A DNA stretch of 25,915 nt from a virus. Taxonomy: Duplodnaviria; Heunggongvirae; Uroviricota; Caudoviricetes. Made by a program: the position numbers. Shown piece after piece: positions 10,832-13,570 of the stretch. Within the stretch, counting starts at the first letter, position 1. Every line of letters begins with the position of its first letter. The stretch lies in the IMG/VR virus record IMGVR_UViG_2529292922_000015; one strand, written 5' to 3'.

Positions 10832-13570
10832 GCTGCTGCCTTAGCTTCTTCTTCGGCTTTAATCCGCGCCTGTTCCTCCTCATAATCAGTAAGAGGCTGG
10901 CGTGCCTTGGCTTTCAGCTCATCAAGGCGATCGCGCACTGTCTTGCGGTTGGCATCAATTAGCTTTGGAATTTCCTTCAGTTCAGCAACAAGGTCTTTGC
11001 CAAGACCATCGAGATATGTTTTCGTCTGCGCAACTTTATACGCCAGAGAAGCGATCTCCTTTCTGCCCTTTGCCGTTGTGATATCAGGCACAAAGGACAT
11101 AACTTCACGTTCAACCTTTTGAAGGATTTCTTCAATCTGGTCGGCAGACTGAAATACAGTCATTGCATTTGCTTTTTCAATAACAACTAAATCTGTTACT
11201 TCACTCATATATCCTCCATCAAAAAATTGCCCTCACATTGGAGGGCAAAGAAGATTTCCAATAATCAGAACAAGTCGGCTCCTGTTTAGTTACGAGCGAC
11301 ATTGCTCCGTGTATTCACTCGTTGGAATGAATACACAGTGCTTATTCGTACTAATAAAACACCCAATTTTCTGTTTCTTGGTTGTGTCCAAAGTTATATT
11401 CAATATCTGGTGTTGATGTATCAATATTCTTCATCCCATCAACAAGAGTTGATACAACAGCCAAATCTTGTTTGATTCTCATCAAATGGTATTTCTTTCG
11501 GCGCAATAAACTTTCAATGGCAAGTTTCTTCGTCGGGAATGCAAAAGATCTTTCTGCATTTTTTGCTACTTTCTTAATTGCATATCTATTTCTCCTTTGT
11601 TTCCATTCCTGTAACCACTGATTTGGTGCTGGTTTAAAATTAACAATCCAATGCGCAGGAACCAACCATGCATAATGCTCTGTCTGATGAAAAGCTATAT
11701 ATTGAAGTGCGAATATTTTGATCCCATCTTCTTCAACTGTCGCCTGGAATCTCCAGAAAACAGGCATTCCATCATGTTCAGTTTCTGATTCAGGAAAAGG
11801 TACGCTCCATGATTTTGTCATATCTCACCTCAAATAAGTGGTTTGCTGCCTAATTTCATTTTCTGGCGACCAACACAAGTCATCTTGCTGTCAGTTGTTT
11901 GGATTTCCGGTAGCCTGCCGCGTAAATGGCTACGTTTGGAAGACATACACCAGTTTCTGGTTGCTTATGTCCAAACTCATTCGCGTACACAATGGCCGCT
12001 CGCTCCAGATTGCGTCTGTATTCTTTCTGTTGCCAGATCACGTCCTGTGCTATGAACTTAATTGGCTTAGCGTCTTCTATGCGCTCAGGCGTTTCGTGAG
12101 TACCTTTAGCCTGAATCTGCGCTCTGCTTAGAGTAGGGCGGTGTAATACTTCTGAACTTATTGCTTCTTCGCGGGCCAGTACGCCGTTAGCTAATGCCTT
12201 TGCCTTTAAACGCTCACGACGACGAGAACGTGAATTGCCTTTGAACTGAGTTCTGCGTGTCATATAGACCTCCTGATGAACTTTGGTGGTGTGGTCGGTG
12301 GGAGACCCATTTCGACCTGTTTCGGCCTACTTCAATTCGGCAATAGTCCCGCAGGCCTCGCCGCTTTACGTGCGACATATTCCCGTCCATGAACCCTTCA
12401 CCACACCCCAAAGTTCACTTTGGTTATTGCGCTTTGTCAGCGCCGTAGATTCTTGCTTGAATCGTTGTATATTCACCGCCCTGGTGAGTAGTGCGTCCTG
12501 CTGATGTGTTTAGTATCACCGCCAGTGGTATTTGCGTCAACACCGCCAGAGATAATTTATCACCGCAGATGGTTATCTGTATGTTTTTTATATAGATTTA
12601 TTTTTTTGCAGGGGTGTGTGGCTTGGGAGGTGATCGAGAGATCTGAATTGCGATGTTTAGTGAGTTGTATCTATTAATTTTCAAATAAATACAATTGGTT
12701 ATGTGTTATTGGGTGAAGGGGATCGTGAGGTAAAGAAAACCCGGCGCTGAGGCCGGGTTGTGTGTTACTTAAGAACGAGTCCGTTTAAGGCATCAAGGAT
12801 TTTGGAAACATAACTTCCAAAAATGTAGGCGCAAAATGCGAACACGAAACTGACAACGACCGCAGATGCCTTGATGGTGATTTTTGCTGAGCTAATGCTT
12901 GTCTCAATACCTGACAGACGAGAATCTACAGATTTTATATCTGACTTTACTTCAGCGAGATCGCGCTTGATGTATTCAACATCAGACTCTAGCTTTGCAA
13001 CTCTAGCCTCAAGCATGTTACCTCCGCCGTTTCCTCCACCATGCCGTGAGTATGCATCATCAGTGGAATAGTGTCCAATTGGGCGAGATATGTTTTGATT
13101 TGGACGAAGCTGAGCAACCTTGTTATCTAAACTCATCGCGAACTGATCCTGTTATCTTCACGTCAAAAAACGAACTTTTTACATCAATTACTTCGCCTTT
13201 ATCAGGATTAACCAGTGATGCTCTAACTTCGAATATCCCAGGCTTGATAATTTTCACCCTTGGGAAGTTAATTCTCATAGAAGTTGATACGATGGTTTCT
13301 CCATCGTTGGCTTCTGCTACCGTAAAAAACTTATGGTTGGAGTACAGTTTTGTGTCAATTGGTATCGGTATTTCTTGAGCATTGAAAACCTCAATGCCTA
13401 TGGAATATTTTTTTGTAGCCTTAAGGCCGATAAAAAAAGCGCCAAATGATAGATCCACTTCATGGGAGTCTTTATCCATTTCATAGATAAGAACTGGAGT
13501 TACTGGGTTGCCTTCATCCATCGCAATCGGAATGATATAAGAAATACGTTCTTTAATCATTTACGTGTTA

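Follow-up and report, generated by a model that had tools for sequence, protein, structure and literature searches.

What is encoded between the antiterminator gene N and the first terminator of the left operon of a lambdoid prophage, in the position where lambda carries ral and sieB? The question is raised by the viral record IMGVR_UViG_2529292922_000015 (Caudoviricetes), a stretch of 25,915 nucleotides (nt) referred to below as the window, which covers the left arm of a lambdoid prophage together with its immunity region. A preliminary description of this sequence had noticed an unassigned open reading frame (ORF) of 156 amino acids (aa) immediately downstream of N and had suggested that it may serve anti-defence or host takeover. 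We found that the 156-aa ORF is a real protein-coding, phage-specific gene and that it fills a slot for dispensable cassettes, where phage 21 has ral and lambda has sieB-orf28-ral. The features of the locus are as follows.

12512..12540, minus strand: pL promoter of the lambda type (TTGACG, 17-nt spacer, GATACT), inside lambda-type OL operators
11880-12263, minus strand: N antiterminator of the H-19B/933W/HK97 type, 127 aa (Pfam N_peptide, E 2.8e-15; phrog_271, E 3e-39)
11825-11831, minus strand: Shine-Dalgarno sequence GAGGTGA, read from the sequence, 3 nt upstream of the ATG
11351-11821, minus strand: 156-aa ORF, intact, with an ATG start (PHROG 1636; the same as HK97 gp45, 933W L0079 and phi24B vb_24B_11c)
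11221-11341, minus strand: 121-nt non-coding element with both hairpins, the fixed downstream edge of the accessory-gene slot
11304-11341, minus strand: first 3' hairpin, 17-nt arms with 82% complementarity, beginning 10 nt past the ORF stop codon
11221..11248, minus strand: intrinsic terminator with an 8-bp G+C-rich stem (11227-11248, TTGCCCTC/GAGGGCAA), a 6-nt loop and a T6 run

The ORF lies at exactly the coordinates first given for it, and its length was also correct. The strong ribosome-binding site that had been described is GAGGTGA at 3 nt from the ATG, at the end of an N-to-ORF gap of 58 nt. The bracketing of the ORF by N and a terminator hairpin (then placed at 11221-11246) likewise holds, with N on one side and on the other the 8-bp stem followed by TTTTTT down to 11221. 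The second hairpin of the region, at 11304-11341, was absent from the preliminary description. Folding of the 3' region gave -46.7 kcal/mol (z -4.67 against shuffled controls), and Rfam found no RNA family anywhere in the window. The N gene is 97-99% identical in DNA sequence to the N genes of 933W, HK97 and H-19B. The G+C content is 36.5% for the ORF versus 48.4% for N and 46.4% for the window; such a low value is typical of exchangeable accessory genes.

The 121-nt element is near-invariant between the window, lambda, 933W and HK97, and its first hairpin is invariant in all four. It is found with at least 95% identity in 325 phage records, including lambda, 21, HK022, HK97, SfI, Salmonella P22-like phages and Shiga toxin (Stx) phages. 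The 156-aa ORF is found in 87 phage records and this type of N in 112 (85 and 98, respectively, at 80% coverage or more), so that the element is distributed far more widely than the genes on either side of it. The homologue of the terminator hairpin lies between ral and ea10 in lambda, and it is an annotated terminator in HK97 and phage 21. The gene orders compare as follows.

Phage 21: N - ral - element - ea10
Lambda: N - sieB (opposite strand) - orf28 - ral - element - ea10
933W: N - L0079 - element - ssb (ea10)
HK97: N - gp45 - element - cIII
Window: N - 156-aa ORF - element
Salmonella phage 118970_sal4 (N 84% identical): sieB and an unrelated 121-aa ORF in the slot

Since the same slot between N and the element is seen in 21, lambda, 933W, HK97 and the window, the 156-aa gene is an alternative cassette to ral/sieB. 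Lambda, 21 and those Salmonella phages whose N is of the same kind lack it, and no ral or sieB homologue was found in the window or in the left-arm regions of 933W and HK97 that were examined. The gene orders and the common element thus give a sharper form to the earlier placement of the ORF in the ral/sieB neighbourhood. A comparison of this slot across lambdoid prophages had been proposed at that stage, and it shows ral, sieB-orf28-ral and the 156-aa gene as alternatives. Ral relieves type I restriction (PMC8022706), and lambda phages deleted for orf28-ral are viable (PMC2327257); it follows that the slot holds dispensable, host-directed functions. The 121-nt element itself may combine two roles, that of a terminator and that of a patch of homology at which modules are exchanged. 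This near-invariant element is a candidate for the short homology that drives the exchange of lambdoid modules.

The ORF matches the PHROG 1636 profile over its full length (residues 1-156 against profile positions 1-156 of 156, E 2.7e-112). Full-length orthologues with 56-85% identity are found in Pectobacterium, Brenneria, Cronobacter, Rosenbergiella, Symbiopectobacterium and metagenomes. The orthologue alignment contains 40 invariant columns, and the N- and C-termini are both conserved. In codon alignments of eight orthologues, the ratio of non-synonymous to synonymous divergence (dN/dS) was 0.07-0.16 where dS was measurable; in most pairs synonymous sites were saturated, at a dN of only 0.2-0.39. 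These values indicate that the ORF is under strong purifying selection. Shortened database entries are flagged as partial by NCBI, in the pattern of contig-end fragments. It was concluded that this is a real protein-coding gene because the full-length PHROG match, the orthologues across genera and the low dN/dS go far beyond chance. An insertion sequence (IS) lies downstream of the ORF in this prophage, and present-day expression in this particular host is therefore not guaranteed. That a non-functional, chance or decaying ORF was observed is nevertheless hardly conceivable: the gene keeps its full length across genera under a dN/dS of 0.07-0.16, it is intact in about 600 genomes and its product has a confident structure prediction, and the conservation data effectively refute the non-gene reading.

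The term unassigned, used in the preliminary description, was right in that no orthologue has an assigned function, but the gene is not new as a sequence; GenBank entries AF069529 and AF125520 already hold HK97 gp45 and 933W L0079. The protein agrees completely with 933W L0079, phi24B vb_24B_11c and the proteins of BP-4795 and of many Stx1a/Stx2a phages (100% identity); HK97 gp45 and a frame left without annotation in the H-19B record match it at 99.4% identity. HK97, 933W, phi24B and BP-4795 have the same protein in the same place after N with the same 121-nt element downstream. Compared with the HK97 and 933W orthologues, the module in the window is joined to the lambda immunity region and to a different downstream gene, which is cut by the IS. 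Of 5426 complete E. coli genomes, 598 contain the gene (834 places; coverage of at least 80% in 593), which is about 11%, or about 1 in 9. Among the E. coli genome matches listed, all are annotated coding sequences named "hypothetical protein", and the phage records that call orthologues all use "hypothetical". A literature search under L0079, vb_24B_11c, HK97 gp45, phrog_1636 and the protein accessions found nothing on this gene. One HK97-matching clone (CM2) of a Phi24B expression paper was set aside, as it matches phages outside the listed carriers of the gene, e.g., VT2-Sakai. The carriers thus include the model phage HK97, the Stx2 phage 933W and many other Shiga-toxin phages, yet the gene has no name, Pfam family or literature, and its product no solved or recognisable fold.

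Among E. coli phages, the gene and the H-19B-type N travel together across the immunity regions of 933W, HK97, H-19B and, in the window, lambda. Among the phages from host E. coli K514 (PV1894xx), five phages of enterohaemorrhagic E. coli (EHEC) carry the 156-aa gene, but this N type is present in only three; at least two phages therefore have the gene joined to another N or another upstream module. It stands directly after N in HK97, 933W, phi24B and E2348/69, and diverged orthologues (58-71% identity) immediately follow unrelated N peptides in a prophage of Cronobacter and in a phage from a metagenome. In Salmonella phage NX263 a diverged orthologue is the first gene of an early operon.

When would the protein be made? 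A consensus scan of 10700-12800 found no sigma-70-like site other than pL, and a scan for intrinsic terminators and promoters gave no convincing terminator between pL and 11351. From the sequence, the ORF appears to be co-transcribed with N from pL, ahead of the first predicted intrinsic terminator. A position on the N message before that terminator would mean that the protein is made very early in infection or induction and not in the repressed lysogen. This bears on the view that the gene protects the lysogen as a prophage exclusion or defence gene, in the manner of sieB. SieB is expressed from its own promoter in the lysogen. The same slot after N holds sieB in lambda and in P22-like phages, the low G+C content is moron-like and the gene is very common in E. 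coli prophages, all of which would suit such a role. The sieB gene lies on the opposite strand, whereas the 156-aa ORF is on the pL strand, where pL is the only promoter-like site found in 10700-12800; lacking such a site of its own, the ORF would be expected to stay silent in the lysogen. The protein also differs from SieB in being hydrophilic (grand average of hydropathy, GRAVY, -0.59) with no membrane segment, and no similarity to SieB was detected (hhalign probability 0.6%; no Pfam match). PADLOC-DB gave no significant match, the best one (Cas1_II, E 0.018, 12.4 bits) being noise. Relatives of the protein are moreover found in apparently virulent phages, including Pantoea phage LIET2 and Erwinia phage phiEa2809. 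We consider an exclusion or lysogen-defence role very unlikely.

The statement that the ORF contained no recognisable motif agrees with the profile searches, since Pfam, NCBIfam and PADLOC were all without a significant match. For the 156-aa protein, nothing was found below E 0.1 in Pfam-A, NCBIfam gave no significant match and sequence-profile searches of the Protein Data Bank (PDB) returned noise only. The PHROGs matched were families of unknown function only (PHROG 1636 and, more widely, phrog_13631 and phrog_25384). An exhaustive profile search of 1.84 billion representative proteins recovered a wider family of 87 relatives at E 1e-3 or better, with a sporadic distribution. Most of them are 130-155 aa long and align over residues ~20-140 at 18-29% identity. 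The motifs of the wide family are an aromatic-aromatic-Arg strand, an E/D-x-Gly turn, His-Glu/Gln-Thr and K-x2-K-x3-R-F-A-x2-T-K, and its long helix has a hydrophobic face flanked by Arg/Lys. The members (phrog_13631, phrog_25384 and BFVD entries such as A0A0A0YXB3 of Erwinia phage phiEa2809) have the core architecture and motifs in common with the 156-aa protein, and all are uncharacterised. A Pfam scan of 46 family members found no common family. The enterobacterial lambdoid subfamily differs from the wide family in an extra acidic N-terminal extension of ~18 aa (SW-VPFPES) and an added C-terminal YNFGHN-x-ET-x-x-W-x-F, invariant or nearly so. A degenerate DNA pattern for RFAF-x-TKE-x-A led to seven loci, four with family members (L029 being the contig of L024) and three without. 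Seven profile matches in a 940-aa protein (P0066) were rejected as compositional; it is a DUF7507/DUF11 beta-sandwich repeat protein.

An AlphaFold model built from a diverse alignment of 46 sequences reached a predicted local distance difference test (pLDDT) score of 91.6 and a predicted template modelling (pTM) score of 0.78. An initial model from 20 close orthologues (pLDDT 59.5) was discarded. The model consists of long antiparallel strands (19-30, 33-46 and 50-55), short helices (56-61 and 66-74), a short strand (83-86), a 33-residue helix (98-130) and an ordered C-terminal tail. A structure search had been proposed in the preliminary description as a way to find a function; Foldseek with the predicted model returned uncharacterised phage proteins only. 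Against BFVD there were 12 matches at E 1e-3 or better (E 5.6e-7 to 7.5e-4, TM score 0.5-0.66), all uncharacterised; those with a named source come from Erwinia, Rhizobium, Sinorhizobium, Delftia and Tenacibaculum phages. A protein of a Cellulophaga phage fell just outside the cutoff (E 1.4e-3). No sequence or fold similarity of the protein was found to solved structures, including solved anti-defence proteins. Already catalogued as a sequence, the 156-aa protein thus belongs, as a kind of protein, to an uncharacterised family; its predicted fold is compact, alpha/beta, phage-restricted, spread across host phyla and unlike any solved structure.

The protein has a calculated mass of 18.6 kDa and an isoelectric point (pI) of 9.1; its sequence properties include no hydrophobic segment and no signal-like N-terminus. 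By these properties and the model, it is predicted to be a soluble, basic, single-domain alpha/beta protein. Lys and Arg are concentrated in the middle (17 of 21 within residues 56-130), and both ends are acidic. Only one acidic position is near-invariant across the wide family (E, column 46), and nearly all enterobacterial members have Gln there, which argues against a catalytic residue. There is no Cys/His cluster in the protein. Because the E of column 46 is not kept, a Cys/His cluster is lacking and Lys/Arg are concentrated in residues 56-130, we infer a binder rather than an enzyme.

The anti-defence or host-takeover suggestion made at the outset is plausible in view of the position, timing and neighbourhood of the gene. 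We tentatively prefer to see in it an early, non-enzymatic, host-directed binding protein, probably with a counter-defence role, and would put the likelihood of this somewhat below even. The binding surface would be a conserved basic stripe at residues ~83-118 (K-x2-K-x3-R-F-A-x2-T-K ... R-K ...), located on the short strand and the long helix, which in the model are packed against the three-stranded sheet. The conserved basic residues include K84, K87, R91, K98, R108 and K109. Through this stripe, the protein may block or sequester some host factor that endangers the genome of the incoming phage, in a role analogous to that of Ral with a separate ancestry. Candidate targets would be nucleic acid, a nucleotide signal, or a protein of defence or repair that is conserved broadly. 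As the fold occurs in phages of both Proteobacteria and Bacteroidota, the target is more likely to be widely shared than to be a protein specific to one species.

Ral of lambda, phage 21 and P22/L is the closest known parallel by position: the two genes have the slot, strand and operon in common and both are small (66 aa for Ral versus 156 aa) and dispensable. No homology was detected between them (hhalign probability 0.1% for the 46-sequence profile against lambda Ral; no Pfam family). Known anti-defence families gave no Pfam-A or NCBIfam match to the 156-aa protein. Pfam-A does include anti-defence models, as Lar_restr_allev and Acb3 were assigned to neighbours of distant members. In a 2025 screen of EHEC phages with the anti-defence module of DefenseFinder, methyltransferases and Gam were reported, together with Ral in two phages, and nothing further (PMC12502783). 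By our phage-record search, phi345, phi315 and phi419 of that screen carry the 156-aa gene; the two phages with Ral are others. This outcome gives independent support that the protein is not of a known anti-defence type.

The neighbours of the gene elsewhere can be read in more than one way. Distant members sit among runs of small early genes, and some of the neighbours are of known counter-defence type: Lar (locus L004), Acb3 (L032), a DNA methyltransferase (LIET2), Abc2 (HK97) and a polyvalent ART/RadC/methyltransferase protein (L033). Clustering of the neighbours at 17 loci found no conserved partner gene, and the 156-aa protein therefore probably acts alone. The protein might instead bind nucleic acid as an accessory factor in the DNA metabolism or gene regulation of the phage itself, e.g., as a recombination or replication helper or an early regulator. 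A pI of 9.1 and a Lys/Arg-rich core of a strand plus a long helix would fit such a factor. The left operon is a recombination operon, with Rad52/HNH/SSB in the window, Bet/Exo in 933W and Erf in HK97. Distant members adjoin an AAA_24 ATPase with a DUF3799 nuclease, RecE, DNA polymerase B with a SNF2 helicase, or Sak/SSB. We regard an accessory factor of this kind as unlikely, although it deserves serious consideration.

Several of these observations count against a counter-defence role. The family has no homology to any defence system, and the protein is basic, unlike the DNA-mimic anti-restriction proteins. Small early phage genes commonly adjoin anti-defence genes anyway. Several distant members are located inside replication/recombination modules (AAA_24, DNA polymerase B, SNF2 helicase, RecE), and replication/recombination neighbours fit a role in DNA metabolism equally well. 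In Pectobacterium and Brenneria, the gene adjoins xis/int and is far from any N. The predicted immediate-early timing comes from consensus scans only, and Rho-dependent termination is beyond prediction here.

A host-directed binder could also be an inhibitor of a housekeeping process such as transcription, cell division or proteolysis, in the way of Kil, CIII and the small RNA-polymerase inhibitors of lytic phages, with a possible link to N-modified transcription. Very early synthesis from the pL operon would be compatible with host takeover of this sort, and the fold similarity reached only uncharacterised proteins; we find such an inhibitor quite improbable. A bolder form of the preferred counter-defence reading can be proposed, which is somewhat doubtful in its full breadth. 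In this form, the gp45/L0079 family would be a structurally unprecedented class of immediate-early counter-defence proteins, made together with N before antitermination is needed and binding directly, via the basic face, to a widely conserved immune target or signal of the host (a nucleic acid, a nucleotide messenger or a restriction complex), which would thereby be neutralised. The N-to-terminator slot of lambdoid phages would then serve specifically for the exchange of first-line anti-immunity cassettes, ral and this gene among them, with the near-invariant 121-nt recombination and terminator element as its boundary. If a counter-defence role is true, the gene would represent a new anti-immunity family with a new fold and would help to explain the spread of Stx phages between E. 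coli lineages. If not, it would point to a new early DNA- or RNA-binding factor.

Other features of the window concern the surroundings of the slot.

8964-10765, plus strand: IS21-family insertion, with istA (rve domain, 340 aa) and istB (IstB_IS21 domain, 260 aa)
13568-14281: cI, 99% identical to lambda cI

The IS21 insertion splits a coiled-coil early gene into two parts on the minus strand (10816-11208 and 8281-8907); this gene is intact in E2348/69 (322 aa). Because the IS lies in the pL operon just past the terminator, it probably makes the left operon polar or defective downstream of the 156-aa gene. In the E2348/69 prophage (L021, 7514-7998), two additional small ORFs of 98 and 62 aa separate the conserved terminator from the coiled-coil gene. 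The window (~11209-11220) lacks them, which indicates a second variable spot just after the terminator. A 319-aa ORF (20796-21755, minus strand) matches the LpxR family of outer-membrane lipid A deacylases (Pfam E 6.8e-40). It is on the strand opposite to the replication genes to its left (e.g., 16089-17969, plus strand), and may be either a lysogenic-conversion (moron) gene or a gene outside the prophage.

Next to cI, rexA/rexB are replaced by two minus-strand ORFs of unassigned function (13123-13560 and 12765-13136, within 12765-13560), which encode 145 aa (phrog_5893) and 123 aa (phrog_6136). The 123-aa ORF has weak coiled-coil-type Pfam matches (XhlA, E 0.0013, below the cutoff) and, by eye, a hydrophobic C-terminal stretch. 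The same rex-replacing pair is found in the E2348/69 prophage. Their location in the cI operon makes the two ORFs candidates for exclusion or defence functions expressed in the lysogen.

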